Shown here: in pieces, positions 7,545-59,170 of the stretch
Layout of the letters: each line of letters opens with the position of its first letter
Numbering within the stretch: the stretch's first letter is position 1
Assembly: GCA_044432975.1 (NCBI GenBank)
Contig: JAWXUC010000001.1
Span: forward strand, 212,604-276,603
Direction of reading: 5' to 3'
From: Alphaproteobacteria bacterium
GTDB taxonomy: Bacteria; Pseudomonadota; Alphaproteobacteria; RF32; CAG-239
Length of the DNA stretch: 64,000 nucleotides
Made by a program: the position numbers and the translations under genes
The notes under the pieces: generated by a model
What the model saw: the letters and a program-made list of their open reading frames with translations, nothing else
Told to the model about the DNA's origin: nothing
Database searches by the model: none

Positions 7545-7790
7545 TGTTGGGATCGCTAAACCGAACATAAATCACATAAAAATGCCGTAACGGAATAAGA
7601 TATTTTTCGTCAGTTCTATTTAAAGAACGAATGTCTCGACTCATATATATATGGTCGGGGTGCTTCCGACTATACAATAAGTATATGTCGGAGGTAACGA
7701 TGATATATACTAAAAGTCGAAGTCTCATTTTTACGGTGATGATTTAGCGACATTCCCGACCACCTTTTATAAGGTGGTTTAATTTTAAAC
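7545..7790 (+). ncRNA. Candidate structured non-coding RNA of unknown family, with an intrinsic terminator
   Basis: This ~330-bp intergenic segment has clearly higher GC than its surroundings. Bases 7545-7585 (GGGATCGCTAAACCGAAC...ATAAAAATG) pair over a long range with 7725-7760 (CATTTTTACGGTGATGATTTAGCGACATTCCC). There are internal hairpins such as CTTCCGACTATA/TATATGTCGGAGG. The 3' hairpin CCACCTTTTATAAGGTGG plus a T-run ends the segment on the plus strand. Confidence 0.35.
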
Positions 7791-7807
7791 TAAAAAAGGA
7801 AATCGCT

Positions 7808-8212: not shown

Positions 8213-8230
8213 TTAAAAAACAAACCATTT

Positions 8231-8264
8231 CTTATTCCTATTTTCCTAGGAAAATAGGAATAAG
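8231..8264. repeat. Palindromic intergenic element, family 1, copy 2 (perfect 34-bp palindrome; likely a bidirectional terminator)
   Basis: The sequence CTTATTCCTATTTTCCTAGGAAAATAGGAATAAG lies between the convergent genes 7808-8212 and amiC. Confidence 0.6.
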
Positions 8265-8316
8265 AAAATCAAAAATAATAATGACAAATCATACTGTTAA
8301 TCAGAAAGATAAAAGT

Positions 8317-9414: not shown

Positions 9415-9425
9415 AATTTCTATTA

Positions 9426-11575: not shown

Positions 11576-11632
11576 AACAACGCACTATAAATCAAAGAAT
11601 ATAAAAAACAATTAATAAATTTAAAAATAATG

Positions 11633-11655
11633 TGTGAAAAACCATTCACACACTA
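11633..11655 (-). terminator. Intrinsic terminator downstream of pgk
   Basis: The hairpin GTGTGAA-AAACCA-TTCACAC is followed by a T-run on the minus strand. Confidence 0.45.
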
Positions 11656-11677
11656 TAAAATATATTTCAAATAAAAA

Positions 11678-12883
11678 TTATTTACTTAAAACAACAACAC
11701 CTGGAAGTTCTTTTCCTTCCATCCATTCTAAGAAAGCACCGCCTGCTGTAGAAATGTATGAGAAGTCTTTAGAAACACCTGCGTGTTCAAGAGCAGAAAC
11801 AGTATCTCCACCGCCGCCAACAGATGTTAATTTGCCAGCTTTTGTTAAAGCCGCAGCATAAGCTGCAACTTTGTTTGTTGCATTATCAAATGGTGTTAAT
11901 TCAAACACACCCAAAGGTCCGTTCCAAACAAGAGTTTTGCATTCATCTAACTTAGCGTTAATGTCTGCAATACTTTGTGTTCCAACGTCCATTAAAATCC
12001 AACCATCAGCAGGAATTTCATTTGGAGCAACAGTTTTGTTTTCTGCATTTGCTTTAAATTCAGTTGAAACCACAACATCAGCAGGCAAAATAATTTCACA
12101 ATTATTAGCTTTAGCTGTAGCCATAATTTCTGTTGCAGTGTCAAGCATATCCATTTGAACCAAAGAGTTCTTTTCATTAACTTCTTCAATACCATTAGCT
12201 CTCATAAATGTATGAGCCATACCACCAGCAATCACAAGTTTATCAACTTTTTTAACCAAGTTGTTTAACAAATCTAATTTTGTAGAAACTTTAGAACCAC
12301 CAACAACAGCCATTAAAGGACGAGTTGGATTGTTCAAACCAGATGTTAAAGCATTAACTTCTTCTTCCATCAATAAACCCATAGCAGATGGTCTTAATTT
12401 AACAGCAGCAACCATAGAAGCGTGAGCTCTGTGTGCAGTTGAGAAAGCATCAGAAACATAAAAATCAACAGGAGCAACTAATTTTGCAGCCCATTCTTCA
12501 TCACCTTTAGTTTCTTCTTTATAATAACGAAGATTTTCTAACAACAAAACTTCATCACTAGCCATAGAACCAATAGCAGCTTCTACTTTTTCACCAATAC
12601 AATCTGCAACAAAAGTTACTTTTGATCCCAAAGCAGATTGCAAATCTTTAACAATGTGGTTTAATGTTGTAGCTTCATCACCAAAACCAGCTGGTCTACC
12701 AAAGTGAGAAACAACCACAACTTTAGCACCTTTTTCCATTAAAGTTTTAATAGTAGGAACTGTTCTATCGATTCTAGCAGTATTTGTAACTTCAAATTTT
12801 TCATTAACAGGTACATTCAAGTCAGCTCTAAGCATAACAACTTTGCCACTAATATTACCTAAATCATTTATAGTTTTATACAT
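11678..12883 (-). CDS. pgk: Phosphoglycerate kinase
   Basis: 401 aa carrying PGK signatures (RADLNVP, GGGAS-like GGGDT...A). Confidence 0.95.
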   Translation of the reverse strand: MYKTINDLGNISGKVVMLRADLNVPVNEKFEVTNTARIDRTVPTIKTLMEKGAKVVVVSHFGRPAGFGDEATTLNHIVKDLQSALGSKVTFVADCIGEKVEAAIGSMASDEVLLLENLRYYKEETKGDEEWAAKLVAPVDFYVSDAFSTAHRAHASMVAAVKLRPSAMGLLMEEEVNALTSGLNNPTRPLMAVVGGSKVSTKLDLLNNLVKKVDKLVIAGGMAHTFMRANGIEEVNEKNSLVQMDMLDTATEIMATAKANNCEIILPADVVVSTEFKANAENKTVAPNEIPADGWILMDVGTQSIADINAKLDECKTLVWNGPLGVFELTPFDNATNKVAAYAAALTKAGKLTSVGGGGDTVSALEHAGVSKDFSYISTAGGAFLEWMEGKELPGVVVLSK

Positions 12884-12950
12884 AAATTTATCCTTAAAAA
12901 AACAATAAGCCTTGAGAGATTCCTCCCAAGACTTATTTTTATAAATATAA

Positions 12951-14042
<1,092 letters not shown>

Positions 14043-14063
14043 TCACCAACAGTAGCTAAAAAA

Positions 14064-15020
14064 TCAATTATCCTTAACATTAGTATCTTTAACAATATAA
14101 ATAGGTCTGTTCTTTATTTCCGTATAAATTTTTGCAATATATTCACCCAAAATACCCATGCAAAACAATTGAATTCCACCCAAAAAACCAATAATACAAG
14201 TTAATGTTGGATAACCTGCAACAGGGTTGCCATAAATAAGTGTTCTAACAAAAGTATAAAAAACAAATAAAAATGAAGAAGCACAAATAGTTAAGCCCAA
14301 AATAGACGCCAACCTCAAAGGAGCTGTTGAAAAAGCAAGAATTCCTTCTAAAGAATACTTAAACAATCCCCAAAAAGACCAACTTGTAGCACCTGCAACT
14401 CTTTCAACATTTTTATATTCAAGCCATTTTGTTTTATAACCAACAAACGGAAATAAGCCTTTAGAAAACCTATTATACTCTTTCAATCTCAAAATAGAAT
14501 CAACCATTTGCCGTGTCATCAATCTAAAATCCCTTGCCCCATTTACAACCTTGGTGCTTGAAAATTGATTAATTAATTTATAAAACAAATTTGCAAAAAC
14601 TGAACGAATAACAGGCTCTCCTTCTCTAGAAAACCTCCTTGCCCCAACACAATCATATCCTTCTTTTTTTATTGCATCATACATTTCTTTTATCATCTCA
14701 AGAGGATCTTGCAAATCAGCATCAACAATAGTTACATAATCACCAATTGCCTTTTCAAGCCCAGCATACATAGCAGCTTCTTTTCCAAAGTTTCTAGAAA
14801 AAGAAATATATTTAATTCTCTCATCTTTTTTTGCAAGTTTTAAGATTACATCTAAAGTCTTATCTTTTGAGCCATCATTTATAAACAAGCATTCAAAAAC
14901 CACATCTTTTTTCATTTCTTTAGAAAATTTATCAAAAGCCTTATAAAAAAAAGGAAGCGCCTCCTCTTCATTATAACAAGGAACAACCAAACTAATTTTT
15001 TCTAATCTATTTTTATTCAT
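14064..15020 (-). CDS. Family 2 glycosyltransferase (polyprenyl-phosphate sugar transferase-like)
   Basis: It has the N-terminal GT-A fold (LVVPCYNEEE, DXD motif VDADLQDP) and two C-terminal TM helices. Confidence 0.8.
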   Translation of the reverse strand: MNKNRLEKISLVVPCYNEEEALPFFYKAFDKFSKEMKKDVVFECLFINDGSKDKTLDVILKLAKKDERIKYISFSRNFGKEAAMYAGLEKAIGDYVTIVDADLQDPLEMIKEMYDAIKKEGYDCVGARRFSREGEPVIRSVFANLFYKLINQFSSTKVVNGARDFRLMTRQMVDSILRLKEYNRFSKGLFPFVGYKTKWLEYKNVERVAGATSWSFWGLFKYSLEGILAFSTAPLRLASILGLTICASSFLFVFYTFVRTLIYGNPVAGYPTLTCIIGFLGGIQLFCMGILGEYIAKIYTEIKNRPIYIVKDTNVKDN

Positions 15021-15547
15021 AATTTTTCCTCTTTTTTGAAAACAAAATTTTTAAACAATATATAAGTTATTATAGTTGTTAACAAAACAGCACCAACTTG
15101 AGCAATTAATGGAGACAACAAAAAATGTCTAACAATAATCTCTAACACAATTGCGTTTATAACATAAGCGATTCCCCAAGTAAATAAACATTTAGAATAT
15201 TCTTCAAGCCAATTTCCCTTTGTGCAAAAAACATAATTTTTTTGAGTTGCAAAAGAAATAAAAGAAGAAAACACCCACGCAAAAAACAATGATAACTGAT
15301 ATCGCTCTTGCCCCATAATCAACAAAAACAAAACAAACAACAAATAACTAACAACAGTATTAAAGCCACCAACCAATAAAAAACGAAGTTTCTCAGGTAT
15401 TTTAAGCCAATTATCAAAAAGAAAACTATAAAATTCTTTTACTTTTAACAAAGAACAACCCCTCACACATTTATCAAAAAAGAATAATACAACTTCATAA
15501 AAAGTCAATAATATTATAATAACTAAAATATCCTCTTGCACTCTCAA
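15017..15547 (-). CDS. Small polytopic membrane protein, possibly GtrA-like, coupled to the GT2 gene
   Basis: It has 4-5 predicted TM helices and overlaps the downstream GT2 gene by 4 nt. Confidence 0.4.
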   Translation of the reverse strand: MRVQEDILVIIILLTFYEVVLFFFDKCVRGCSLLKVKEFYSFLFDNWLKIPEKLRFLLVGGFNTVVSYLLFVLFLLIMGQERYQLSLFFAWVFSSFISFATQKNYVFCTKGNWLEEYSKCLFTWGIAYVINAIVLEIIVRHFLLSPLIAQVGAVLLTTIITYILFKNFVFKKEEKL

Positions 15548-41987: not shown

Positions 41988-42032
41988 TAACAACAAAACA
42001 CTATTTCTCAAAAGACAATATATCTCCAGGGC

Positions 42033-42110
42033 TCTCATCGCGTGCTACTTACCAACAAAAAACCCCTGCTTTCAGCAGAGGATTTTTGTTGGTAGGCGCA
42101 CGGGGATTGA
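42033..42110. repeat. Direct repeat copy A of a tRNA-3'-end-like att sequence plus hairpin (78 bp)
   Basis: It shares ~75 of 78 identical nt with 42191-42273. On the minus strand the T-arm of the tRNA-like part is split by a 74-nt GC-rich insert. Confidence 0.6.
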
Positions 42111-42190
42111 CTTCGTCGTCCTTTGTTCATTCGCTTCGCTCACCGCCACACTTCCGTGTGGCTTTCACTGCAGTCTCGAACCCCTTTCTT

Positions 42191-42273
42191 CCGTGGTTCT
42201 CATCGCGTGCTACTTACCAACAAAAAACCTCTGCTTTCAGCAGAGGATTTTTATTGGTAGGCGCACGGGGATT
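42191..42273. repeat. Direct repeat copy B of the tRNA-3'-end-like att sequence
   Basis: See copy A. Here the tRNA-like 3' end is uninterrupted. Confidence 0.6.
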
Positions 42274-42291
42274 CGAACCCCGGACCCACTG
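42255..42291 (-). pseudogene. tRNA 3' fragment (variable loop, T-arm, acceptor 3' strand, CCA) followed by a terminator hairpin; putative attachment-site remnant
   Basis: The minus strand reads AGTGGGTC-CGGGG-TTCGAAT-CCCCG-TGCGCCT-A-CCA. No matching 5' acceptor strand (AGGCGCA), D-arm or anticodon arm was found within 150 nt upstream. The hairpin CCTCTGCTGAAAGCAGAGG plus a T-run follows. Confidence 0.5.
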
Positions 42292-42573
42292 ATTAAGAGT
42301 TATATAGCCTGTAAGAAAATACATAGCAATTTTAGATAGTTAAACCCTCTCAAAAATCCATCCATAAAAATTTTCCGAGTTTTTTCCGAGTTTTTGATAA
42401 AACCCGAACATAAATTATTTTTCAAAAAAATATAGGTGTATTAAAGTGCCTTTGTTAGTATCGGCTAATATTTTGCTGTATTTTGGTGTATTTAGTGGTC
42501 TCTTTTAGTGCTGAAAGTTAAAACGTTCTACTGTACTCTCTTAATTGTATTTAATTGAAATTTGGAGAATATT

Positions 42574-42810
42574 ATGCAAAAAAAATATATTAACACAAAA
42601 GAATTATCCGAGTATTTAGGGCTTGCTGTTTCTACATTAGCAACATTTCGCTCTGACGATAAAGGACCCCCATATAAAAAGATTGGTAGACTTGTCCGCT
42701 ATAATGTAGATGAAGTTGAAACTTGGTTGGAAGAAAATCAACAATATTTACAGAAATCGCTGGACAATCACGACAACATACCTAAGCTGAACATAATAAA
42801 AATCCATTAG
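42574..42810 (+). CDS. AlpA/excisionase-like HTH DNA-binding protein
   Basis: The sequence INTKELSEYLGLAVSTLATFRSDDKGPPYKKIGRLVRYNVDEVETWL fits the AlpA pattern. The ATG at 42574 is preceded by GGAGA; the TTG at 42562 used by the ORF track is less likely. Confidence 0.65.
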   Translation: MQKKYINTKELSEYLGLAVSTLATFRSDDKGPPYKKIGRLVRYNVDEVETWLEENQQYLQKSLDNHDNIPKLNIIKIH

Positions 42811-42832: not shown

Positions 42833-44080
42833 ATGACACAGCGAGTAAAGAAAAAAATAACTCCCGAAGTTTTAGATAATTTTCTTAAAGGGCAAGAAGA
42901 CATCAAAGTCAAAGATACAGAAATATCTGGCTTCTATGTTTGGTATTATGCTGTCAGCGGGCGAAAAACATTTTTTATGCGTTATTATGCAAAAGAAGAG
43001 AAAAAAGAAAGAAACATCAAAATCGGCTGTTATCCAGACATTAGATTAAAAGAAGCAAGGGAAATTGCTTATGAATATAAATCAAGCGTTATCCGTGGTG
43101 GCAATCCAGTTGTAGAGATAAAACAACAACAAGAGGACGCTTACCAAGAAAAAGCCAATAATCTAAAAGTTAAAGTTGTTTTGCAAGAGTATTTAACTGA
43201 ATATACTGCTAGATATAACAAACCTCGCACATTAGAAATTCAAAAAGGTATTATAAAACGTTTTATAAACAAAGAAATTGGTAATATTTTTATCAAAGAA
43301 TTAAAACTATTAGATATAAATAAGCTTGTTTCAAAAGTAGGAGCTAAAACTCCTGCTCAAGCCAATCAATGCAAAGCCTTACTTTCTTGTTTTTTAAATT
43401 GGTGCGAAGATTATGGATATAGAGAGCTAAACTCAAATCCCTGCAGAAAAATAAAAAAGTTTAAATTGAAAGTTAGAGATAGAGTTTTATCGTTTGAAGA
43501 ATATGGACGTTTATTTGACGCAATAGAAAAAGGCAAAGAATATGATATATACGCCTCATCTTCCTTTGATATAATTAAATTTTTAGCTATTACAGGCTGT
43601 CGCTTATCAGAAGCCAAAGACTTAAAATGGGTTGAAGTTGATTTTAATAATAGCTTATTAAGATTATTAGATAGCAAAACGGGAGAAAAAGCCGTTCCAA
43701 TAGGCAATGAAGCACTTAATATATTAAAGGAAGCTTATAAGAAAAAGTCCTGTGAATACGTTTTTCCCTCTTCAAAACACGCTGGGCAACCATTCTTTGA
43801 TGTAAGAAGACCATGGTTCTTTATTAGAAAAGAGGCAAAACTAGATGGGCTTAGAATACACGACCTCCGCCATTCATTTGCAACCGCTGGCAGTATGATG
43901 GGCGAGAATATCGCAGTTATAGGAAGTGTTTTAGGGCATAGGCAAATATCAACAACACAAAGATATACCCATATAAATAACATTGCAGGAATAGAAGTTG
44001 CCAATAAGATTTCAAGCAAAATCATACAGATGTCTAAGCAATATTCCGAAGATTGCAATTTATTAGTCGCAAATGCTTAA
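42833..44080 (+). CDS. int: Tyrosine recombinase / phage integrase
   Basis: 415 aa whose C-terminal catalytic domain carries R...HDLRHSFAT...RYTH (catalytic Tyr). It lies adjacent to the tRNA-like att repeats. Confidence 0.9.
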   Translation: MTQRVKKKITPEVLDNFLKGQEDIKVKDTEISGFYVWYYAVSGRKTFFMRYYAKEEKKERNIKIGCYPDIRLKEAREIAYEYKSSVIRGGNPVVEIKQQQEDAYQEKANNLKVKVVLQEYLTEYTARYNKPRTLEIQKGIIKRFINKEIGNIFIKELKLLDINKLVSKVGAKTPAQANQCKALLSCFLNWCEDYGYRELNSNPCRKIKKFKLKVRDRVLSFEEYGRLFDAIEKGKEYDIYASSSFDIIKFLAITGCRLSEAKDLKWVEVDFNNSLLRLLDSKTGEKAVPIGNEALNILKEAYKKKSCEYVFPSSKHAGQPFFDVRRPWFFIRKEAKLDGLRIHDLRHSFATAGSMMGENIAVIGSVLGHRQISTTQRYTHINNIAGIEVANKISSKIIQMSKQYSEDCNLLVANA

Positions 44081-44198: not shown

Positions 44199-44561
44199 AT
44201 GAGCGAACTAGCATTTGAAATAGAAGAAATTGATGTAGAAAAAGTAAAATCATTAAACGATAGTTTTCGCAGAGAGATATATAACAGCAAATTGGGGCTT
44301 TTACATTATACACCAATGGTTAGTGCCTTAAACGATGAAGACCGATTCGAGCTAACAAGCCTCGTTCAACAGTTTGAAGATTTTAATGAAGACAATGACC
44401 CTTATGGCGAACACGACTTTGGCAAGATTGATTTTAGAGGGGAAAGCTATTTTTTCAAAATTGATTATTACGATAACGCCTTAAAATATCACTCGCCTGA
44501 TAAAAGCAACCCAAAATTAACAAAAAGAGTTTTAACCCTAATGAACACACAGGAATATTAA
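44199..44561 (+). CDS. DUF3768-like small protein
   Basis: The motif DNDPYGEHDFGKIDF...FKIDYYD...SPD...LTKRVLTLM matches my recollection of the DUF3768 consensus. A strong RBS AGGAGA precedes it. Confidence 0.4.
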   Translation: MSELAFEIEEIDVEKVKSLNDSFRREIYNSKLGLLHYTPMVSALNDEDRFELTSLVQQFEDFNEDNDPYGEHDFGKIDFRGESYFFKIDYYDNALKYHSPDKSNPKLTKRVLTLMNTQEY

Positions 44562-45564: not shown

Positions 45565-47469
45565 GTGTCAATTCTGAATAATCGTTCTAAAACAAAGGAA
45601 TATAAAGTTATGGATATTAAGAAACTAGATGGCAAGAGTTTGGATATTGAAAATGTTGATATAGAAAAGTTAAAAGCTATATTTCCTCAAGTTTTTATGG
45701 AAAATAAGCTTGATATTAGTAAGCTTCTTAATCTTTGTGGTGAATATATTGAGAGAGATGATGAAAAATATAAGTTTGAATGGAAAGGTAAATCTGATTG
45801 TTATAAGGTTGCTGGCAAGCGTTCTACAGGCACTTTGCGTCCTGCACCGCAAGAAAGTATAGATTTTGAAAATACTAATAATCTTTATATTGAGGGAGAT
45901 AATTTAGAAGTATTAAAACTCTTGCAAACTGCGTATTATCGCAAGGTTAAAATGATTTATATTGACCCTCCTTATAATACAGGCCATGATTTTGTTTATG
46001 AAGATGACTTCAAAGACCCAATTGCAAAATATAAAGAAATTACAGAACAAACAACCAAATCAAACGTTGAAACAATGGGTCGTTATCATACCAACTGGCT
46101 TAATATGATGTATCCAAGACTAAGGCTCGCCTCAAACCTTTTGCGTGATGATGGCGTTATTTTTATATCTATTGATGATAACGAAATAACCAACCTCCGC
46201 CGTTTATGCGATGAAGTATTTGGGGAAGAAAATTTTGTTGACTGTTTACATTGGAAGAAGAAAAAACAACCATCTTTCTTGGCTAAGCATACAGCAAAAG
46301 TTATGGAGTATGTTTTAATATACGCAAAAAACTTTAATAGCTTAGAAAAATTATCTATTGAAACTCTTTCTGACGCAACAAAAAAAGTTATTAACATTTC
46401 AAATCAAGAAACAAAAAGACGTTTTAGCAAAGGTGTAAGAGTAAAGATTGGAGATACAGGCGTAATAAAAGCTGGACGATATAAAGTAAAAACAATGGAA
46501 GTTGAATATTTACAAGATATATACTACCAAAATGGATTGACTACAAATGAAGTTGATGTTGTTTCCAAGTTTTCTGTTTCTCAAGATAAAATAGATAATT
46601 TCATTTCTGAAAATTTACTTTTTATCACAGAAAATAAAGGATTAAGAAGAGATGTCTCTGAAGAAGAAAAATTAAAAAGAAAATCTATTACTGATTTGTT
46701 ATTAAGCGAATATGGAGATAGCCAAGAAAGTGATAATGAGCAAAAAGAAATTTTTGGTGAAAGATTATTTGATTATACAAAGCCAACAAAACTAATATAT
46801 AATTTTACTAAATCTCTTTTATGCAATGATAATGATATTATTCTTGACTTTTTCTCGGGAAGTGGAACAACCGCCCACGCTGTTATGCAATTGAATGCTG
46901 ATGATAATATAAATCGTCAATTTATTGTTGCACAAATACCCGAGCAAACAGGACTAGAAGAATATAAAACCATTTGTGAAATAGGCAAAGAGCGTATTCG
47001 CCGTGCTGGGGCTAAGATTAAAGAGCAAAATCCAAATGTTGATACTGGCTTTAAGGTTTTCAAACTAGATACTTCAAATTTGAAAAAATGGGACGACACG
47101 CCTATTCAAGATGATGATGAGGCAACTTTGTTTGAGCGTATGAATGAAATGGAAAAAACATTAAAAACAGATAGAAACGAGCTAGATTTCATCTATGAAG
47201 TTATGTTAAAATTAGGTATTCCATTGACTTATAGCATTTCCATAATGCAAATTGGCACACGCAAAGTTTATTCTATCGGAGATGATAGCTTGATTTTAGT
47301 TTGTATTGATAGCTCTAGCGGTGGTATAACAGCCGAAGACATTACAGCAATGTGCGACATTGCCCCTGCCAAAATAGTCGCAAGCGAAGAAGCCTTTGCC
47401 GATGATGTTGCCCTCTCAAATGCTTATTATATAAGCAAAGATAAAAAAATAGAAATTGAGTTGTTGTAA
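45565..47469 (+). CDS. mod: Type III restriction-modification Mod subunit (N6-adenine DNA methyltransferase)
   Basis: 634 aa. Motif IV reads IYIDPPYNTG in the N-terminal half and the AdoMet motif I (FFSGSGTTAHA) lies in the C-terminal half. A variable target-recognition region lies between them. Confidence 0.85.
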   Translation: MSILNNRSKTKEYKVMDIKKLDGKSLDIENVDIEKLKAIFPQVFMENKLDISKLLNLCGEYIERDDEKYKFEWKGKSDCYKVAGKRSTGTLRPAPQESIDFENTNNLYIEGDNLEVLKLLQTAYYRKVKMIYIDPPYNTGHDFVYEDDFKDPIAKYKEITEQTTKSNVETMGRYHTNWLNMMYPRLRLASNLLRDDGVIFISIDDNEITNLRRLCDEVFGEENFVDCLHWKKKKQPSFLAKHTAKVMEYVLIYAKNFNSLEKLSIETLSDATKKVINISNQETKRRFSKGVRVKIGDTGVIKAGRYKVKTMEVEYLQDIYYQNGLTTNEVDVVSKFSVSQDKIDNFISENLLFITENKGLRRDVSEEEKLKRKSITDLLLSEYGDSQESDNEQKEIFGERLFDYTKPTKLIYNFTKSLLCNDNDIILDFFSGSGTTAHAVMQLNADDNINRQFIVAQIPEQTGLEEYKTICEIGKERIRRAGAKIKEQNPNVDTGFKVFKLDTSNLKKWDDTPIQDDDEATLFERMNEMEKTLKTDRNELDFIYEVMLKLGIPLTYSISIMQIGTRKVYSIGDDSLILVCIDSSSGGITAEDITAMCDIAPAKIVASEEAFADDVALSNAYYISKDKKIEIELL

Positions 47470-47507
47470 AAATTCTAATTACGGCGAATGTGCCATAATT
47501 AAAAATA

Positions 47508-47969
47508 ATGATAAGAAAGGAAAACAAAATGAAAAGAAACTTTGAAACTATGAAAACCATTTTTTCTAATGCTATACTTGCATTAGAAAAAAAAGATAAT
47601 ATACAAATATCCGATATTGTTGACAGTAAAAACAAAGACGAAGTATATAATTTTAATTTAATGATAGAAGATGCGTTCTTTAATACATGGATAGATCCAC
47701 TGGATAAGATTCAATTCATATCAAATCTAACAGGAAAAGGAGAGCGTTTCTTCAATTTAACTAAAAATCAAAATTTATTAGAGGAACTTGATTTAAAATA
47801 TAGTGATTTGTTGAGTGTTCTTTCAACAGAATCTATTCTTGAAAAAGCGGAATGGATTATAAAAAATGACACTCATTTTCATAATATGAATATAATGTAT
47901 AGAGAATCTGGCGAAAAAATATCATATAAAGATTTTTGCAAACAATTTTCTGAAAGTTTATTTAAATAA
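47508..47969 (+). CDS. Hypothetical protein inserted between mod and res
   Basis: 153 aa with no recognisable motif. It is very AT-rich. Confidence 0.4.
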   Translation: MIRKENKMKRNFETMKTIFSNAILALEKKDNIQISDIVDSKNKDEVYNFNLMIEDAFFNTWIDPLDKIQFISNLTGKGERFFNLTKNQNLLEELDLKYSDLLSVLSTESILEKAEWIIKNDTHFHNMNIMYRESGEKISYKDFCKQFSESLFK

Positions 47970-48107
47970 TGAAACTACAATTTACAAAACAAGGCACTCG
48001 TCATCCCGAACTTGTTTCGGGATCTCCAAAAGGTGTAGATGAGATGCTGAAACAAGTTCAGCATGACGAATTATGTGTTCGTGATAATGCTTTGGGGGTG
48101 TTTCAAT
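47969..48107 (+). pseudogene. Duplicated 5' end of res (MKLQFTKQ...) reading into the insertion; probable remnant
   Basis: A 26-nt identity with the true res start (AATGAAACTACAATTTACAAAACAAG) is followed by 38 unrelated codons that include the left inverted repeat. Confidence 0.4.
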
Positions 48108-48621
48108 GAAGCAAGGATATGTTTATATAATGACAAATAAATACAATACTACTTTTTATATTGGGGTAACAAGTAATATTGAGCGTCGTGTATATGAACA
48201 TAAAAATAATTTAGTTAAAGGTTTTACAGAAAAATATAATGCTCATAAATTGGTTTATATCGAGCAATATAACTTAGTAACAGAGGCAATTGCTAGAGAA
48301 AAACAATTAAAAAATTGGCACAGAGATTGGAAAATAAATTTAATTAAAAAACAAAATCCTAACTTTGAGGACTTATATACTCGGAAAATTTCTAATGCAC
48401 AAGAGATTTTAGAGATCCCGAAACAAGTTCGGGATGACGAGAGTGGAGTTCAGGATTACGGATTGGGAATTAGTGATGGCGAGTGCGTTATTTGGGAGAA
48501 CGAGTGTGGAGTTCGGGATGAAAGCTTGGAAATTAAGGGTGATTGTTTAGAGTTGTACGAAAATATCGTACAACTGAAGATTCCAAAAAGTATTAAGCAA
48601 ATTGCAAAGGATAAGAAATGA
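48106..48621 (+). CDS. GIY-YIG nuclease domain protein (YhbQ/COG2827-like) with a C-terminal extension
   Basis: Its N-terminus GYVYIMTNKYNTTFYIGVTSNIERRVYEHKNN carries GIY...YIG with the catalytic R/E residues. The stop overlaps the res ATG (ATGA). Confidence 0.75.
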   Translation: MKQGYVYIMTNKYNTTFYIGVTSNIERRVYEHKNNLVKGFTEKYNAHKLVYIEQYNLVTEAIAREKQLKNWHRDWKINLIKKQNPNFEDLYTRKISNAQEILEIPKQVRDDESGVQDYGLGISDGECVIWENECGVRDESLEIKGDCLELYENIVQLKIPKSIKQIAKDKK

Positions 48622-51600
48622 AACTACAATTTACAAAACAAGAATTTCAAACAAATGCTGTTGAGGCGGTGGCTGGATTGTTTAAGGGGCAAGAAGAAGA
48701 TTCTGCAACTTTTTCGATTGTTGATAATTCGGCTCAAACATCTTTCTTGGCTGGAGGCTTGGGCAATCAAATCTTGATTGATGATAAAACTTTGGCAGAA
48801 AACCTTAACGCTATTCAAAAACATAACTCTTTGCCATTGAGCGATGTTTTGCCCTCACCCGCAGGCAAGCCTGCGACCTCTCCCCAAATGGGAGAGGTGT
48901 TAAAAGGTCTTCCCGTTTCTATTGAAATGGAAACAGGAACAGGAAAGACCTATGTTTATATTAAAACTATTTTAGAGCTTAATAAACGTTATGGATTTTC
49001 AAAGTTTATTATTGTAGTGCCAAGCGTGGCTATTCGTGAGGGTGTGTTGCAATCTTTTAAAGATACCACAGAGCATTTCAAAAAAGAATATCCAAAAGCT
49101 TTATATAACTTTTTTATCTATAATTCTTCTCGCTTGAATGATGTTCGCCATTTTGCCCGTTCGCAAGATATACAAATTATGATTATCAACATTGACGCTT
49201 TCAAAAAGGCAGAAAATGTTATCAACCAAGAGCGTGCAGATGACGGAAATGGTAAAATTATCAAATATCTTCAAGATACTAACCCTGTTGTAATTATTGA
49301 TGAGCCTCAATCTGTTGATAATACCGACAAGGCAAAAGAGGCAATTGCAAGCCTTAATCCACTTTGCGTGCTTAGATATTCGGCGACACATCGTGAAAAG
49401 AATAATCTTGTTTATCGTTTAACCCCTGTTGACGCTTACAAAAAAGGCTTGGTTAAGCAAATATGCGTTATCTCTAATTCTGTAATCAATGACGCTAATA
49501 AACCATATATAGCCTTAAAATCTGTGTCTAATGCCAATGGCTTTACGGCTAAGATTGAGATTGATGTTGAGGGAAAAGACGCAAAAATAACTCGTAAAGC
49601 AATAACCATTAAGCCTGGAACAGACTTATATCTTGAATCTGGCAACCGCTCTTTATATGAGGGATATGCGGTGGCAGGAATAGATTGCACCGCTGGTTTT
49701 GAGGGTGTTGAGTTTGCAAATGGCGAATATGTGGCTCTTGGCAAGGCAATTGGCTCTGTTGATGATAATGTTCTTAAACGTTCGCAAATTTATCATACTA
49801 TTAAAACGCATTTTGATAAAGAGCTTCGCTATTTTGCAAAAGATATAAAGGTTTTATCATTATTTTTTATTGATGAGGTTAAGAAATACCGCACCGAAGA
49901 TGGCGAACAAGGTATTTATGCAAAAATGTTTGAAGAATGTTATAACGAGTTATTAGCAAAACCCAAATATGCCCCATTAAAAGAGCTATTTAATACAGAT
50001 GTTGTAAATGCCCATGATGGCTATTTTTCTCAAGATAAAAAAGGTGCTTACAAAAACACCAAAGGCGATACTCAAGCGGACGATACGACATATAATGTTA
50101 TTATGAAAGATAAGAAAAAGCTGTTGTCTTTTGATTGTCCTTTGCGTTTTATTTTCTCGCACTCTGCCCTAAAAGAGGGTTGGGATAATCCTAACGTATT
50201 CCAAGTTTGCACATTATTAGAACAAAAATCTGTTTTTACTTGTCGTCAAAAGATAGGTCGTGGATTGCGTTTATGTGTTAATCAACAAGGAGAGAGAATA
50301 GAAGATAAAAATATCAATATTCTTCACGTTGTGGCAAATGAAAACTTTGCGGATTTTGCCGATAAACTTCAAAAAGAGATTGAAGCAGAAACAGGTATGA
50401 AGTTTGGCACGCTAGAAATTAGCAATCTTCTTGGGCTAACTTATGAAGAAGAAGTTGAGGTTGAAAAGGAAATCACTCAAGAGCAAGCTCAAATAATTGT
50501 GGAAGTTATAGAGGCAAGCAATAATATTGAAGAGGCAAATATTCCCGAGCCTATCAAAGAACAAGTCAAAGATTTGATTAAAGAAGAAAAGCCAATTTCT
50601 GTGGCAACCCTTGTTAATAAAACTTATACCGAAGTTATTAAAGAAGAAAAAACTGTTGACTATGCCGAGGCAGTAGAAATGCTGGAAGATTTGAAAGAGC
50701 AAAAAATTATTTCAAAAGATGGCAAAATAAAAGATACCATGAAAGAGCAACTAAAAGCAGGAACATTAGATTTAGGCGAGCGTTGGTCTAATGCTAAAAA
50801 AAGAGCCGTTTTACAAGCCGTTCAAAAAGCAGACAACAAGCCTGTAATTAGGGACGCAAGCAAAGAGGTTTCTGTAAAGCTTAAAAAGCAAGCTTTTATT
50901 AGCCCCGAGTTTATGGAGTTATGGAACAAAATCAAACAAAAAACAACATATCGTGTGCAATTTGATTTAGAAGAATTAACAAAAAATGCAATTAAAGACT
51001 TAAAAGCAATGCCCCCAATTGCAACCGCTAAAATTATGACGCAAACTGCAGGGCTTGATGTTGCAAAAGCAGGTATTACTCACGTTGAGCAATCTACAAC
51101 AACAGAAGAGCTAAAACAAAATTATTACTCTTTGCCTGATATTTTGCGTTTAATATCTATCAAAACCTTGCTAAAACGCTCAACTGTTAATAAGATTATT
51201 CAAGATAGTGGCAGAGCAAAAGACTTTTTGAAAAATCCTCAAGAGTTTTATGAAAAAGCCTTGGAGATTATAGAGAAAAATCGCCATGCGTTGGCAATTG
51301 ACGGAATTAAATATATTAAGCTTGCTGGCGAAGAATATTATATGCAAGAGATTTTTGAGAGCCAAGAGCTTATTGCTAACCTAGATAAAAATGCGGTGGC
51401 GGTTAATAATAGCGTTTATGACCATGTTATTTATGATAGTTCAACTGTGGAATTGCCTTTTGCAAAAGCGTTAGATAATGATCCCGAAGTTAAAATGTTT
51501 TTCAAAATCCCAAGCCGATTTAAGATTGAAACCCCAATTGGCACATATAATCCCGACTGGGCGGTTTATTTAGAGAAAAACGGCGAACACAAACTTTATT

Positions 51601-51761
51601 TTGTGCTTGAAACCAAAGGCTCTAGTGATTTTCTTCAATTAAGACCAGAAGAAAAGCTAAAAATTCATTGTGGCGAGCAACACTTCAAAGCTCTTGAAAA
51701 CAATACAGTCTTCCCAAGCAAACCCGTTGTAAACTGGCAAGACTTTAAGAAGAGTATGTAA
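48618..51761 (+). CDS. res: Type III restriction enzyme Res subunit (SF2 helicase plus C-terminal PD-(D/E)xK endonuclease)
   Basis: 1047 aa with Walker A METGTGKTYV, the DEAH-like IIDEPQS, a C-terminal YNPDW...LETKG nuclease motif and long coiled-coil inserts. Confidence 0.85.
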   Translation: MKLQFTKQEFQTNAVEAVAGLFKGQEEDSATFSIVDNSAQTSFLAGGLGNQILIDDKTLAENLNAIQKHNSLPLSDVLPSPAGKPATSPQMGEVLKGLPVSIEMETGTGKTYVYIKTILELNKRYGFSKFIIVVPSVAIREGVLQSFKDTTEHFKKEYPKALYNFFIYNSSRLNDVRHFARSQDIQIMIINIDAFKKAENVINQERADDGNGKIIKYLQDTNPVVIIDEPQSVDNTDKAKEAIASLNPLCVLRYSATHREKNNLVYRLTPVDAYKKGLVKQICVISNSVINDANKPYIALKSVSNANGFTAKIEIDVEGKDAKITRKAITIKPGTDLYLESGNRSLYEGYAVAGIDCTAGFEGVEFANGEYVALGKAIGSVDDNVLKRSQIYHTIKTHFDKELRYFAKDIKVLSLFFIDEVKKYRTEDGEQGIYAKMFEECYNELLAKPKYAPLKELFNTDVVNAHDGYFSQDKKGAYKNTKGDTQADDTTYNVIMKDKKKLLSFDCPLRFIFSHSALKEGWDNPNVFQVCTLLEQKSVFTCRQKIGRGLRLCVNQQGERIEDKNINILHVVANENFADFADKLQKEIEAETGMKFGTLEISNLLGLTYEEEVEVEKEITQEQAQIIVEVIEASNNIEEANIPEPIKEQVKDLIKEEKPISVATLVNKTYTEVIKEEKTVDYAEAVEMLEDLKEQKIISKDGKIKDTMKEQLKAGTLDLGERWSNAKKRAVLQAVQKADNKPVIRDASKEVSVKLKKQAFISPEFMELWNKIKQKTTYRVQFDLEELTKNAIKDLKAMPPIATAKIMTQTAGLDVAKAGITHVEQSTTTEELKQNYYSLPDILRLISIKTLLKRSTVNKIIQDSGRAKDFLKNPQEFYEKALEIIEKNRHALAIDGIKYIKLAGEEYYMQEIFESQELIANLDKNAVAVNNSVYDHVIYDSSTVELPFAKALDNDPEVKMFFKIPSRFKIETPIGTYNPDWAVYLEKNGEHKLYFVLETKGSSDFLQLRPEEKLKIHCGEQHFKALENNTVFPSKPVVNWQDFKKSM

Positions 51762-54397
51762 TGAGCGAAACAAAATCTATATTTCCCAATCCTTATTCTG
51801 CTTTTGTTGAGGCTCGGCGATTGCGTGATTGTTTAGATGATAAAAACCTTGCCCCTATATTTGCCTCAACTAATATTAAAATATTGCCTTATCAGATTGC
51901 AGCAGCTGGCTTTACTTTGCGTTCAAAATACTTAAAAGGCTGTATTTTATGTGATGAGGGTTCGCTTGGTAAAACTTATGAGGCGTTGCTTGTGGTCGCT
52001 CAAAAATGGTATGAGGGCGTAGAAAATATTTTAATTGTATTGCCCGATAATCTTATTAACCAATGGAAAAACAAGCTAGAAAATGAATTTAATCTGCCTT
52101 TTCATTTATGGGAAGATGTTAAAAGCGGAAAATATTTGCAATCTCTTGACGCTATTATTCGCAAAGGCGGTGTTTCGTATTCTTTATTAGAAGAAAACAA
52201 ACGTAAAGATAAAATGGTTGGAATTTGCCTTATATCTTACAAACAAGCAATTCAAAACACAGAGCAGTTACAACAGTTTTCTTGGGATTTAGCTGTTTTT
52301 GATGAGGCAGACTTTTTATTCAAGCCCGAGAATAAGTCTGTTATTAGTTTAAAACAAAGCGTTGGCAATGCTTTTAAGCTTCTTTTAACTCCAACGCCTA
52401 TAACCTCAAGCATTATGGATATATATGGGCTAATTCATTTTATTGATGAAGATGTTTTGCCTGATAGTGATACTTTTTATAAACGCTATTTTAGAAAACC
52501 CGAGAATTATGCTGAATTATCAGAATGGGTTTCAAGGTTTGCTTTTAGAACCTTAAAAAGACAAGCCTCAAATTATGTTAATTTTACAAATCGCTTGCCT
52601 GCGGTTATCAATTATAAACTAACAGATGAAGAAAAAGAACTTTATGTTTTAATTGAAAAATACTTGAAGTTGCCCGTAAAGCAAGCATATCCAAGTATGG
52701 ACATCTATCAATTGACTTTAATGTTTTATCATACAATAGCCTCAAGTCCCAAGGCTTTTGCAAATATGCTTAAAAATCCAATAGAACGAGCAGACGCAGA
52801 AGAAAAAGAATTATTGTTGTCTATGCAAGAAAAAGCAGAAAATATTGCTATTAGTGGCAAAATGCAAGATTTATCACAAGCCTTAAAACAAGTATTCAAG
52901 CACTTAAAAGAAAATAAAGAGCCTCAAAAGGCAATTGTTTTTACCGAAAATAATACAACTCGTGAAGTGCTTTATGATTTATTGTCTAATTATAATATAA
53001 CCTCAAATATTGATGATTTTAGAAATGATAAAAGTATACAAATTTTGATTGCTTCCGATGAGCTGGCAAAAGGTTTAGATATTGAGTTTTGCCCCGTTGT
53101 TGTTAATTATGATTTATTATATAATGCGGTGGAAATGGAACAACGTATTTGCAGGTGCCACCGTCAAGGGCAAGTTTCTGATGTGCTAGTTATCAATATG
53201 CTATCGCCTGATAATTTTTCCGATGTTAGAGTTTTAGAGCTTATCAATAAACGCACTTTACAATTTCAAGGGATATTTGGTATGTCCGATGATATTGTTG
53301 GCAATTTTGATGAAAGCTTAAACGATGTTATTGCCAAACTCCGAGAAAATAAAGCTATACAAGAAGATTTTAGAAATAATTTGAAACAACATAGGCAAGA
53401 TAATGAAGATGTTGTCTTAGAGGCAGAAAACGAGCTTTTTACAACCTTTACAAAAAACATTTCTGATAAAATGACTGTTTCTCCCAAGTATATTGAAGAA
53501 CAAGCAGAAAATATAAATCATAATTTATGGGAACTTGCAAAATTTTATTTTAATCATTATGAGCCTTATTATATTATTGATGATGAGAATAAAACTCTAA
53601 CCTTAAAAGAAAACGAAGAACGCCCACTTTTGTTTTATTATAACAATGGCACGCAAAATATTCGTTATTATGGCAAAAATGCTTATGGAATGGCAAAAGA
53701 TTTTAAGCCTGCCACAGGGCGTATAAGTATTCTTTCAATTCTTGGCGAAAATATTTTATACAATATAAAAGTCGCAACCGCTGGCACAATTAAAAGAACA
53801 ACCTTTGAGCCTTGTGAAATTGCTTTTTATAACATAAGCTTGTATTCGGGGCGTAAATATATCAAAGAATTTGATGTTTTAATTGGTAAAACAAATAATG
53901 GAGAGATTATTCCAAGAAGCAAATGTCTTGAAATCCTTAATAACCCAGATATAGAAATAATTGAAGATGAAACTGCAAAATCTTATACTAAAACACAAAA
54001 AATCCCACAAATATCTGATTTGGAAAACAATCAAGAGTTAAGCTATCTGATAGATGAAATTAAAAATAATTATCAGCAAAAAGAAGTAAGCCGAGATGAC
54101 CTTGATTTAATTAAATTGACAGCGAATCGCAAAAAAGACTTACTAAAAGAAAGCGTTGATAATATAAAAAACAAGATAAAGAAATCAAAAGAAAATGCTA
54201 TTGATGACCGCCTTGAGGCTCTTAAACTGCAAAAACAAATGAGCGTTTTAGAAAAAGAGCTAAAACAAAAAGAAGAAAGTCTTTTCTTTGATCAAATAAA
54301 AATTGATGCCGAAATGGAAGAAAAAATCAATTCTTTTATCGAGCTTGATAAATTAGAGATAAGAGTAGAAACCTTGTTTAAGCTTTCAAGTTTATAA
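51761..54397 (+). CDS. SNF2-family ATPase with a ~380-aa C-terminal domain of unknown function
   Basis: It has motif I CDEGSLGKTYEAL, motif II FDEADFL, the SNF2 motif III LLLTPTPITSSIMDIYGLIHFI and motif VI QRICRCHRQGQ. The start overlaps the res stop (TAATG). Confidence 0.8.
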   Translation: MSETKSIFPNPYSAFVEARRLRDCLDDKNLAPIFASTNIKILPYQIAAAGFTLRSKYLKGCILCDEGSLGKTYEALLVVAQKWYEGVENILIVLPDNLINQWKNKLENEFNLPFHLWEDVKSGKYLQSLDAIIRKGGVSYSLLEENKRKDKMVGICLISYKQAIQNTEQLQQFSWDLAVFDEADFLFKPENKSVISLKQSVGNAFKLLLTPTPITSSIMDIYGLIHFIDEDVLPDSDTFYKRYFRKPENYAELSEWVSRFAFRTLKRQASNYVNFTNRLPAVINYKLTDEEKELYVLIEKYLKLPVKQAYPSMDIYQLTLMFYHTIASSPKAFANMLKNPIERADAEEKELLLSMQEKAENIAISGKMQDLSQALKQVFKHLKENKEPQKAIVFTENNTTREVLYDLLSNYNITSNIDDFRNDKSIQILIASDELAKGLDIEFCPVVVNYDLLYNAVEMEQRICRCHRQGQVSDVLVINMLSPDNFSDVRVLELINKRTLQFQGIFGMSDDIVGNFDESLNDVIAKLRENKAIQEDFRNNLKQHRQDNEDVVLEAENELFTTFTKNISDKMTVSPKYIEEQAENINHNLWELAKFYFNHYEPYYIIDDENKTLTLKENEERPLLFYYNNGTQNIRYYGKNAYGMAKDFKPATGRISILSILGENILYNIKVATAGTIKRTTFEPCEIAFYNISLYSGRKYIKEFDVLIGKTNNGEIIPRSKCLEILNNPDIEIIEDETAKSYTKTQKIPQISDLENNQELSYLIDEIKNNYQQKEVSRDDLDLIKLTANRKKDLLKESVDNIKNKIKKSKENAIDDRLEALKLQKQMSVLEKELKQKEESLFFDQIKIDAEMEEKINSFIELDKLEIRVETLFKLSSL

Positions 54398-54606: not shown

Positions 54607-55371
54607 ATGGATATTACAAAGGAATATATGACTATTACAGAGGTTGCGAACCTTTGGGACGTGCCTTTGGAAGATATACGTTATCTCGGCGAAGAGGGAG
54701 AACTTACAATCTGCATTCGCCGTATTCCTATGCGAGTTGCAATAGAAAGCATATTAGAAAAAAGCCCATACTTAAAAAGTCTACCAAAAAAATCCAAAGA
54801 GATTATGAAACTACTTGATGAGCCTCAACCTTTGCACCCAACAGACATCTATTTGCTTTTTGCCAATAAAGATAGAAAAATTAAAATCAATCGCCTTAAA
54901 ACCTTGCCTTTAATGAATATTGTTCATATTAAAACTCCTGATATAGAAGTTGGCTTTGAAGATATGATTATAACTGCAAGCGAAAGAAAGCGTTTTGAAT
55001 TTGAAAGAACAAACAAAATCTTAAAAGAAAGCATTTGCGAGCCTTTAACATTAAAATCAAGTGATTTTACTTGTATTGAATTATATGGCGAAACATTTAG
55101 CTTTGGCGAAAAGCAAGCTATTATTATAAAATATTTATATGATAGATATTATTCTGGCGATCCGTGGGTGCATGGCAAAACCTTATTGGCAAAAGCAAAT
55201 TCTGAAAGTTATAAGTTGGCCAATTTATTTAATAAACATCATTCTTGGCGTAAAGCTATTATTTCAAATGGGCGGGGTTATTATAGAATAAACCTGCCTT
55301 TTGCAGAACCAGCTCCCACAAGGCGTTCTAACATAGATGACACACCCTCCCTTTTTGATAATTTAGATTAA
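54607..55371 (+). CDS. Protein with an N-terminal excisionase/MerR-like HTH and an unknown C-terminal domain
   Basis: The HTH reads MTITEVANLWDVPLEDIRYLGEEGEL. 254 aa, followed by a terminator. Confidence 0.45.
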   Translation: MDITKEYMTITEVANLWDVPLEDIRYLGEEGELTICIRRIPMRVAIESILEKSPYLKSLPKKSKEIMKLLDEPQPLHPTDIYLLFANKDRKIKINRLKTLPLMNIVHIKTPDIEVGFEDMIITASERKRFEFERTNKILKESICEPLTLKSSDFTCIELYGETFSFGEKQAIIIKYLYDRYYSGDPWVHGKTLLAKANSESYKLANLFNKHHSWRKAIISNGRGYYRINLPFAEPAPTRRSNIDDTPSLFDNLD

Positions 55372-57820: not shown

Positions 57821-59170
57821 ATGGATTTTAACATTATACTTCCCCCTGGAATACCAACATGGAAAATTGAGGATTTAGTCCCTTATGACAACAATCCCCG
57901 CACGCATAGTGAAGAGCAAATAAACCAGCTTGTTGCTAGCATTATTGAGTTTGGTTTTACTAATCCAATCTTGGTTGATAAAGAAAGCCGAGAAATTATC
58001 GCAGGTCATGGACGCTTAACCGCTGGTCGCCGTTTAGGAATGCCAAAAATTCCTGTTGTTGCTTTATCTCATTTAGATGAAACAAAACGCCGAAAACTTG
58101 TGATTGCCGACAATCAACTTGCCTTAAACGCTGGCTGGGATATGGATTTATTAGCCACAGAGCTTTCTGCGTTAAATGAAATGGGCGAAGATTTAGACGT
58201 TTTAGGCTTTGATGACAGTTTTCTTGACGATGTCTTAAAAGCAACTTTGGAGGAAGAAACAGGCGATAATTTAAAAAAAGAGTTTGGTTCTTTAGTAGAG
58301 CGTTTTGGCGTGCCACCATTTAGCATTTTAGAAGTTCGCAAAGGTTATTGGCAAAAAAGAAAAAATGCTTGGAAATCTATTATCGCCGAATACGGAGAAA
58401 GCCGTGAGGGAACTTTATTTTCTCCCGATACTTTTATTGCCGAAATGGGAACAGTTAGCTTGCTTGACCCTGTTTTGTGCGAAGTTTCTTTTAATTGGTT
58501 TGGCTTAGGTGCTGGCACAAAATGTGTTGACCCGTTTTGCGGTGATACAATGTTTGCTCATGTATGCTCGGCAAAAGGTGGAAGCTTTACAGGGATTGAA
58601 ATTCGTCCCGATCAAGTAGAGCTTAATAATCAGAAAAAAGAAGAATACAACCTAAATGCAAATTTTATTTGTGATGACGGAATAAATGTTTTGCAACACG
58701 TTGAAGAAAACAGCCAAGACCTTTTGTTTAGCTGTCCGCCTTATTTTGATTTAGAAGTATATAGCGATTTAGAAAAAGACGCAAGCAACCAAAAGGAATA
58801 TGATGATTTTATCAAAATTATTGATAAAGCCTTTGGGGACGCTATCAAAACCTTAAAAGATAATCGCTTTGCCACAATTGTCGTTAGCAATATCAGAAAC
58901 AAGAAAACAGGCTGTTATCGCAATTTCGTTGATGATGTTATTCGTATATTTCAAAAAAATGGAATGCACTTTTATAATGACATTATTCTAGTTGATTCTT
59001 TGGGTTCTGCCCCAAGAAGAGCTGCACATAATATGAAAAACAGAAAGGTTGTAAAAGTCCACCAAAATGTTTTAATTTTTTATAAAGGCAATCCACAAAA
59101 AATCAAAGAAGAGTTCACATCTGAGGTCTTTGTAGATAATTTTGCTGTGGAGGATAAAAACGAGGAATAG
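57821..59170 (+). CDS. ParB-like nuclease domain / DNA methyltransferase fusion protein
   Basis: The N-terminal ParB/Srx region reads PYDNNPRTHSEEQINQLVASIIEFGFTNPILVD...AGHGRL. The C-terminal amino-methyltransferase region carries LFSCPPYFD (motif IV) and VDPFCGDTMFA (motif I-like). Confidence 0.8.
   Translation: MDFNIILPPGIPTWKIEDLVPYDNNPRTHSEEQINQLVASIIEFGFTNPILVDKESREIIAGHGRLTAGRRLGMPKIPVVALSHLDETKRRKLVIADNQLALNAGWDMDLLATELSALNEMGEDLDVLGFDDSFLDDVLKATLEEETGDNLKKEFGSLVERFGVPPFSILEVRKGYWQKRKNAWKSIIAEYGESREGTLFSPDTFIAEMGTVSLLDPVLCEVSFNWFGLGAGTKCVDPFCGDTMFAHVCSAKGGSFTGIEIRPDQVELNNQKKEEYNLNANFICDDGINVLQHVEENSQDLLFSCPPYFDLEVYSDLEKDASNQKEYDDFIKIIDKAFGDAIKTLKDNRFATIVVSNIRNKKTGCYRNFVDDVIRIFQKNGMHFYNDIILVDSLGSAPRRAAHNMKNRKVVKVHQNVLIFYKGNPQKIKEEFTSEVFVDNFAVEDKNEE

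Follow-up and report, generated by a model that had tools for sequence, protein, structure and literature searches.

The 64,000-nucleotide stretch of DNA from a gut alphaproteobacterium analysed here (the window; contig JAWXUC010000001.1) holds, at 45565-54397, a cassette in which genes for a Type III Mod and Res are followed by a gene for an SNF2-family ATPase. We consider it likely that the three constitute one restriction-modification (RM) system, a Type III variant of three components with its own dedicated SNF2 ATPase, inherited and expressed as a single module. For decades, work on Type III RM enzymes has treated them as machines of two subunits: the mod-res gene pair suffices, and for cleavage ATP and two unmethylated sites in inverse orientation are required. 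The proteins of the window match exactly the NCBI entries MFI3241188 to MFI3241201 (locus tags R3Y43_013xx) from an alphaproteobacterial metagenome-assembled genome (MAG). The original prediction, made from the letters of the window, had singled out the cassette as unusual in architecture and as a candidate uncharacterised defence system. The third, SNF2 gene is confirmed, but the arrangement is not rare, being common in this Type III clade and on enterobacterial plasmids. The components are recognisable with PADLOC and NCBIfam models, but the searchable literature, the coverage of which is incomplete and leaves REBASE outside, gave us no account of an SNF2 partner to a Type III Mod/Res system; the three-component variant is apparently undescribed.

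Components of the cassette

The five genes predicted for the cassette (Mod, an open reading frame (ORF) of 153 residues, a GIY-YIG gene, Res and the SNF2 protein) are all present where they had been placed. The features of the cassette are as follows.

45565-47469, + strand: Type III Mod, N6-adenine methyltransferase with DPPY and FxGxG motifs (PF01555, 122 bits; PADLOC MTase_III PDLC03634, 592 bits)
47508-47969, + strand: orf153, orphan cargo gene of 153 residues in the mod-res gap (no family match)
47994-48617, + strand: inserted GIY-YIG mobile element (PF01541, E 1e-16; flanking repeats)
48106-48621, + strand: GIY-YIG ORF, in which the nuclease domain takes up residues 4-78 only (PF01541; homologs of ~95 residues)
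48618-51761, + strand: Type III Res, superfamily 2 (SF2) ATPase (GTGKT, DEPQ) with C-terminal PD...ExK nuclease (ResIII, RE_endonuc)
51761-54397, + strand: SNF2-family ATPase of 878 residues, the putative third component (SNF2-rel_dom PF00176, 97 bits; Helicase_C PF00271, 45 bits)
51857-53305 (residues 33-515), + strand: SNF2 ATPase core (Pfam)
Residues 520-599 of the SNF2 protein, + strand: predicted helical linker (AlphaFold2 models)
53570-53998 (~residues 604-746), + strand: predicted beta-rich domain (AlphaFold2 models)
54032-54340 (~residues 758-860), + strand: predicted antiparallel coiled-coil hairpin (AlphaFold2 models)
Residues 865-877 of the SNF2 protein, + strand: predicted terminal strand (AlphaFold2 models)

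Judged by their motifs and profile matches, Mod and Res fit the definitions of Type III RM subunits. The MTase_III match spans Mod residues 19-630, and since alignments with homologs begin only at residue 16, the true start of Mod is probably the ATG at 45610. Res matches RE_endonuc (PF19778) with 123 bits, the PADLOC REase_III model with 942 bits and the Res subunit of EcoP15I with an E value of 4.8e-63; against NCBIfam NF012027 (PRK15483) it reaches 345 bits, under the 564-bit equivalog cut-off.

The third protein belongs to the SNF2 family by its intact Walker A, DExx and motif VI sequences; the GKT, DEAD and QRxxRxxRxGQ (here QRICRCHRQGQ) motifs are invariant in an alignment of 16 homologs, and the PDB matches are ISWI, RapA and SsoRad54. 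In the window protein K71 is the Walker A lysine, and E182 belongs to the DEAD box. Beyond the ATPase core lie 362 residues that match no Pfam and no PADLOC model. The original prediction had described this region as a coiled-coil domain without a recognisable motif, and the two AlphaFold2 models (pLDDT 80 and 87) agree, displaying a beta-rich domain followed by the coiled-coil hairpin; neither part matched a solved fold, and a search of BFVD returned nothing. The region is a conserved property of the family. It is shared by the full-length relatives, which number more than 600 (40-55% identity), and a HMMER search with the region against 1.84 billion representatives gave 133 matches, of which the full-length ones are all proteins of 827-912 residues with the region in the same C-terminal position and the rest are fragments. 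Neither Pfam nor PADLOC detected a nuclease or other effector domain in the protein. The series D607...D647-F-K649 was considered as a PD-(D/E)xK nuclease and rejected: the lysine is arginine in some homologs, the column is not invariant or nearly so, and no restriction endonuclease fold was matched.

Linkage and co-divergence with mod and res

The stop codon of res and the start codon of the SNF2 gene overlap as TAATG (51761), as had been predicted, and this overlap would couple the expression of the two genes. According to the original prediction the SNF2 protein is coupled to Mod and Res as a partner, and the survey of gene neighbourhoods bears this out. Scanning one genome per species for the SNF2 protein gave 70 loci (these and the loci of other searches are referred to by L numbers), in which Mod and Res were located by tblastn with the window proteins. 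Wherever the flanks are long enough, Mod and Res adjoin SNF2 in almost every one of these loci. With the context loci added, 56 loci from at least five phyla contain Mod and Res orthologs together with SNF2, and most loci missing one of the three end at a contig boundary. Two gene orders are found: Mod-[insert]-Res-SNF2 in gut Alphaproteobacteria, and SNF2-Mod-[insert]-Res in Gastranaerophilales, Clostridia, Rikenellaceae and a Bartonella plasmid; a rearranged locus occurs in Opitutales, and one locus (L030) is decayed, with Mod split and Res missing. In minimal copies (L065, L004, L055, L061 and L064) merely 6-30 nucleotides separate the genes. Whether the same overlap recurs had been named as a check; adjacency to Mod/Res and tight spacing do recur, as with the 3-nucleotide gap of L001, but the exact TAATG is not conserved across homologs.

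The three proteins also diverge together. Over 38 non-redundant loci the Mantel correlation is 0.89 for SNF2 and Res, 0.78 for SNF2 and Mod, and 0.87 for Res and Mod, with 0 of 2000 permutations reaching the observed values. SNF2 thus tracks Res as closely as Res and Mod track each other.

In the reverse test, an alignment of Res served as the seed in metagenomes and ORFs were scored with a hidden Markov model built from the SNF2 alignment. A locus was taken as informative if it contained Mod and at least 3.5 kb upstream of mod, which left 36. An SNF2-type helicase lies upstream of mod in 26 of the 36: a full-length SNF2 protein of the window architecture in 12, and in the other 14 a helicase of ~1070 residues with the PADLOC model 'HKD+Snf2' (C3a139) as its best match there (405-442 bits). 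The remaining 10 have no helicase upstream of mod. The ~1070-residue helicase, found in L091-L094, L100, L101, L106, L110, L115, L118, L120, L131, L148 and L154, also matches weakly an NCBIfam phospholipase-D anti-phage protein; together with mod and res it could represent a sister three-gene architecture, with the nuclease on the helicase itself. A close Mod/Res pair with no SNF2 gene is carried by L079 (Res 59% identical; contig of 15.8 kb). In that locus, at 6060-15432, a 2.8-kb insert encodes a TIR-domain protein, and a GmrSD-like gene 13 nucleotides past res is followed by a gene for a Schlafen/AlbA-Fic_C protein; the third component may be in the course of replacement here.

The SNF2 architecture extends to a second Type III family. 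Genes in the order helix-turn-helix (HTH)-SNF2-Mod-Res are found on Klebsiella IncFII and Salmonella IncFIB plasmids and on plasmids of Rhizobium, Planctomycetes, Monoglobus and E. coli (NZ_CP018955.1); a Deinococcus plasmid has SNF2-Mod-Res but lacks an annotated HTH gene ahead of SNF2. The SNF2 protein of the Salmonella plasmid aligns with that of the window from end to end, C-terminal region and coiled coil included (26% identity, E 4e-71). Its Res resembles the window Res at the level of motifs only (E 3e-9; PADLOC PDLC03648) and, by these scores, belongs to a different Type III family. One SNF2 architecture with two Type III families argues that the SNF2 module is linked to Type III RM generally and not to one lineage. 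On a Klebsiella grimontii IncFII plasmid (L158, 8652-16694) the HTH, SNF2, Type III Mod (1046 residues) and Res genes stand beside the ssb/psiB/psiA region; its Res ORF has 550 residues against a model of 1154 positions and may be truncated. Among 5426 complete E. coli genomes, two have an SNF2 segment identical to that of L158.

Proposed role of the SNF2 protein and relation to other defence systems

By analogy with canonical Type III enzymes, Mod would mark host DNA at an asymmetric site and provide sequence recognition, and Res would contribute the ATP-triggered switch and the PD-ExK nuclease. We read the SNF2 protein as a putative double-stranded DNA translocase or remodeller working with Mod and Res, because its ATPase is intact, it has no nuclease domain, and an SNF2 protein is needed in both ARMADA and class 1 DISARM. 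Walker mutants of ArmA abolish ARMADA defence (10.1101/2025.09.15.676423), and deletion of drmD together with drmMI nearly abolishes the protection of class 1 DISARM against phage Nami (10.1101/2021.12.28.474362). The three proteins would form a physical complex, the SNF2 protein probably docking through its family-specific beta-domain and coiled-coil arm. Its likely task would be either the removal of proteins that block the way or a directed movement on top of the diffusion by which Type III enzymes communicate over long range; in both cases restriction would gain in strength or breadth, which is the direction of effect that we propose.

ARMADA, BREX type 3 and 'BR' systems follow an architectural logic (PMC12839542) in which an adenine methylase is paired with an SNF2 ATPase of the RapA/DrmD-like kind. 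The cassette resembles ARMADA, BREX type 3 (BrxHII) and the BREX-related 'BR' systems in this pairing and in being methylation-based; it differs in that those systems use PglX-like methylases with YprA, PglZ or HKD effectors, and it may differ as well from their helicases, which possess an N-terminal Tudor domain, an inactive restriction endonuclease domain and an alpha+beta C-terminus. Among canonical enzymes, EcoP1I and EcoP15I function as two-gene systems, and EcoP1I is itself prophage-borne. Like them, the cassette has a PF01555 N6-adenine Mod and a Res with SF2 ATPase and C-terminal PD-ExK nuclease; unlike them, it adds a co-inherited SNF2 ATPase gene and accessory genes between mod and res, and its Res lies below the PRK15483 cut-off.

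A stronger version of this account, in which the SNF2 protein is obligatory as a third subunit and alters the way the Type III enzyme finds and cuts DNA, we put forward tentatively, as a possibility that falls short of being probable. Active directional translocation or roadblock removal would then be added to passive one-dimensional diffusion, and could permit, for example, restriction of DNA in which all sites point one way. The cassette would stand for a distinct and widespread RM subtype that crosses several Type III families and many phyla, reaches clinical IncF plasmids, and has a built-in hotspot recruiting abortive-infection genes as a second layer of defence. Were the SNF2 motor needed, the models of how Type III enzymes communicate over long distances in restriction would be incomplete for much of the family, and tools that report 'RM type III' and an orphan 'DrmD' would split one system in two. 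The cassette would also form an evolutionary bridge from classical RM to the DISARM, ARMADA and BREX-type defences, through their common logic of SNF2 protein and adenine methylase. The enterobacterial plasmid versions (Klebsiella, Salmonella and E. coli) make the three-component hypothesis directly testable.

Several points weigh against a three-component system. The whole case is built on sequence and structural models, and the activity of the cassette is a predicted one. The L079 pair and the 10 of 36 Res-seeded loci without an SNF2 gene or helicase indicate that Mod/Res can persist without the SNF2 protein, and the two-gene precedent of EcoP1I and EcoP15I suggests that it may be dispensable or regulatory. 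Co-divergence is a measure of co-inheritance, not of physical interaction. Most of the homologous loci come from MAGs or metagenomes, in which assembly errors are possible.

A further reading, in our estimate unlikely, takes the SNF2 protein for a control or establishment factor that gives no help in cleavage and instead adjusts Mod/Res in the interest of the mobile element. Such a factor could delay restriction while the DNA of a new host is being methylated, shield replication forks from self-restriction, or sense and counter anti-restriction proteins. The residence of the cassettes on mobile elements (a prophage here, plasmids elsewhere, including the IncF region near psiB and ssb) agrees with it, as do the small HTH regulator that precedes SNF2 in the commoner gene order and the survival of some Mod/Res pairs without SNF2. 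The sequence evidence fits this account and the three-component system alike, with nothing specifically against the former; it is the precedent of ARMADA and DISARM, where related SNF2 ATPases are needed for defence itself, that speaks for a part in restriction.

We regard it as quite improbable that the SNF2 gene is an independent neighbour, a stand-alone defence or housekeeping helicase brought next to a two-gene Type III RM system by the clustering of defence genes. Clustering does occur at these loci, where defence genes accumulate in the mod-res gap (AbiTii, AbiJ, PDC-S13, Mrr or TIR, depending on the locus); L079 retains Mod/Res alone; and single-gene SNF2 defences such as HmaA exist (PMC11232893). 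Yet the cargo genes change between loci and the SNF2 gene does not, its linkage holding through 56 loci of different phyla and through both gene orders. The SNF2-Res correlation as high as that of Res and Mod, the same SNF2 architecture with a second Type III family, the stop-start overlap with res, and an SNF2 protein that lacks a nuclease or other effector domain of its own argue likewise for a partner.

The remaining comparison is with DISARM, the layout of which the original prediction had judged the cassette not to share. The PADLOC check gives clear matches for Mod and Res and, for the SNF2 ATPase core, DrmD as the best model, with 269-280 bits (PDLC02619); in NCBIfam the best is DrmD_b (NF038318) with 269 bits, far from its equivalog cut-off of 950, and NF038317 gives 97 bits against a cut-off of 610. 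The Type III-linked plasmid relatives reach 650-700 bits on DrmD models, still under 950, and even for these the match is confined to positions ~22-656 of the 868 in the profile. The C-terminal 362 residues of the window protein match no DrmD model. Neither DrmA, DrmB (DUF1998) nor DrmC (PLD) occurs at 42-64 kb of the window or in any of the homologous contexts that we inspected. With its PF01555 domain the methylase is a Mod of Type III, and the PADLOC matches listed for it are all MTase_III or MTase_II. The methylase of class 1 DISARM, DrmMI, is a pfam13659 protein (10.1101/2021.12.28.474362). We reject membership in class 1 DISARM on account of the DrmD scores below cut-off, the lack of DrmA, DrmB and DrmC in the contexts inspected, and the Type III Mod in place of DrmMI. 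The cassette resembles class 1 DISARM in bringing together, in defence islands, an SNF2 core closest to DrmD_b, an N6-adenine methylase and a helicase-nuclease effector; it differs in its Type III Mod and Res, in lacking DrmA/B/C, and in an SNF2 C-terminal region unrelated to DrmD profiles. The SNF2 motor is likely to share ancestry with DrmD. That the SNF2 protein is DrmD itself and the cassette a degenerate or recombined class 1 DISARM is highly improbable: its best models and the higher scores of the plasmid relatives favour this, and the partial, sub-cut-off matches, the unmatched C-terminus, the missing partners, the methylase and the intact Res all contradict it.

Cargo genes and the integrated element

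The gap between mod and res is a hotspot; in other copies of the cassette it is filled by unrelated genes for abortive infection or nucleases. When the ORFs of this gap and of the one between SNF2 and mod were clustered and then scanned for families, the inserts were seen to vary by locus: AbiTii, AbiJ/Abi_C, PDC-S13 (13 loci; a Bro-N protein), KilA-N, Mrr_cat, YaaC-like, DUF6602 and TIR proteins. Plasmid cassettes often have extra genes wedged in (DUF262, AIPR, RhuM, VapC and Abi). Type I RM loci can similarly embed abortive-infection genes, such as PrrC between hsd genes. The likeness lies in variable Abi-like or nuclease genes inside an RM operon, which in the present family sit in the mod-res or the SNF2-mod gap (AbiTii, AbiJ, PDC-S13, Mrr_cat, TIR, RhuM, AIPR and DUF262); the host operon, unlike those, is a Type III one with SNF2, and the window cargo orf153 is without known relatives. 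Were the SNF2 motor needed, the hotspot would amount to a list of candidate defence genes, orf153 included.

In the window the gap is occupied by orf153 and the GIY-YIG element, which are variable cargo and not core parts of the cassette. Listed originally as an unknown ORF, orf153 is an orphan: it matches nothing in Pfam, PADLOC, PHROG or NCBIfam, finds no homolog except itself among 5.8 billion clusters, and has no copy in any related locus. The GIY-YIG gene, described originally as inserted, is a real insertion, as established by the duplication of the res start, the inverted repeats and the patchy presence among loci. A 31-nucleotide direct repeat brackets the element (47963-47993 and 48612-48642, 94% identical) and consists of the first 25 nucleotides of res and the six bases upstream. 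Within the element are 35-nucleotide terminal inverted repeats (47997-48031 and 48407-48441, 97%) and further hairpin copies. The stop codon of orf153 overlaps the duplicated res ATG as TAATG (47966-47970), and excising the element from the sequence restores this overlap with res itself, as it stood before the insertion. An element with the same hairpins lies just upstream of res in L012 (3800-4180) and L080 (9620-10000), at 76% amino-acid identity, and it is missing from most homologous loci. Three loci, with Res proteins just ~69% identical, thus have the element and its REP-like hairpin repeats at the 5' end of res, and as the window copy carries the first 25 nucleotides of res, the gene is left intact; these positions could reflect site-specific homing to the start of res.

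The cassette is cargo at the integrase end of a phage-like element that is inserted at a tRNA-Lys gene and extends beyond the window; this follows from the integrase and attachment site on its left and the phage-type genes on its right. An integrase-proximal cargo slot had been predicted, and the integrase lies 1.5 kb from the cassette, next to a displaced tRNA-Lys end. The features that frame the slot are given below.

42255-42299, - strand: displaced 3' half of tRNA-Lys(CUU), 45 nucleotides from anticodon loop to CCA, then its terminator (sequence reading)
42562-42810, + strand: excisionase/AlpA-like small HTH_17 protein (PF12728, E 3.6e-10)
42833-44080, + strand: P4-type tyrosine integrase (Arm-DNA-bind_3, SAM-like and Phage_integrase domains)
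44199-44561, + strand: DUF3768 protein (PF12599, E 4e-31)
54607-55371, + strand: protein of 254 residues bounding the cargo slot on the phage side (no family match)

The tRNA-Lys(CUU) 3' half is the left attachment site of the element; ARAGORN found no intact tRNA at these positions, and an Rfam scan of 41-58 kb gave no matches. Genes for valyl-tRNA synthetase and an enoyl-CoA hydratase (Pfam) are also located on the left side of the cassette. An older and shorter remnant copy of the tRNA-Lys 3' end and terminator lies at ~42020-42110, so that 42020-42300 holds two tandem copies of terminator and tRNA end, with 17 and 45 nucleotides of the tRNA. This arrangement suggests that integration took place here twice in succession, the earlier element being reduced to ~85 bp.

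Three small ORFs separate the DUF3768 gene from the cassette. DUF3768 homologs also adjoin the cassette in L001 (3174-3491), L017 and L054, and the gene belongs to the backbone of mobile elements and turns up repeatedly near related cassettes. It does so in elements with different recombinases, a tyrosine integrase in the window and a serine recombinase in L001.

The 254-residue protein at 54607-55371 had been taken for an HTH protein, a label that the searches do not bear out: scans of Pfam, PADLOC, PHROG and NCBIfam gave no family match, and it does not resemble the adjacent HTH_17 protein. At L123 4016-4693, beside a distantly related SNF2-Mod-Res cassette, lies the gene for a homolog (28% identity, E 2e-30), and L123 and the window both carry DUF6362 as well. 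This double recurrence suggests that phage backbones related to one another carry different versions of the system in one and the same slot. The two cassettes that the 254-residue proteins adjoin are very different and lie in opposite orientations. The protein may be a marker of the shared cargo slot, or a regulator.

A phage database contained no full-length SNF2 homolog, so a description of the SNF2/Type III cassettes as typical of phages is unsupported; plasmids and integrated elements are the main carriers encountered. On the 3' side of the window cassette the phage-type genes comprise HTH_17, DUF6291, DUF6362, a tail-completion-like protein and a ParB-methyltransferase fusion. Look-alikes of small terminase, large terminase and portal genes also lie downstream, among them a terminase-like ORF at 59628 and a portal-like ORF at 61817, labels that come from reading the translations alone. 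The ParB_N-methyltransferase fusion (57821-59170; PF02195 and PF01555) is probably an orphan methylase of the phage, and a gene of 458 codons resembling it sits upstream of the SNF2-Mod-Res cassette in L004.

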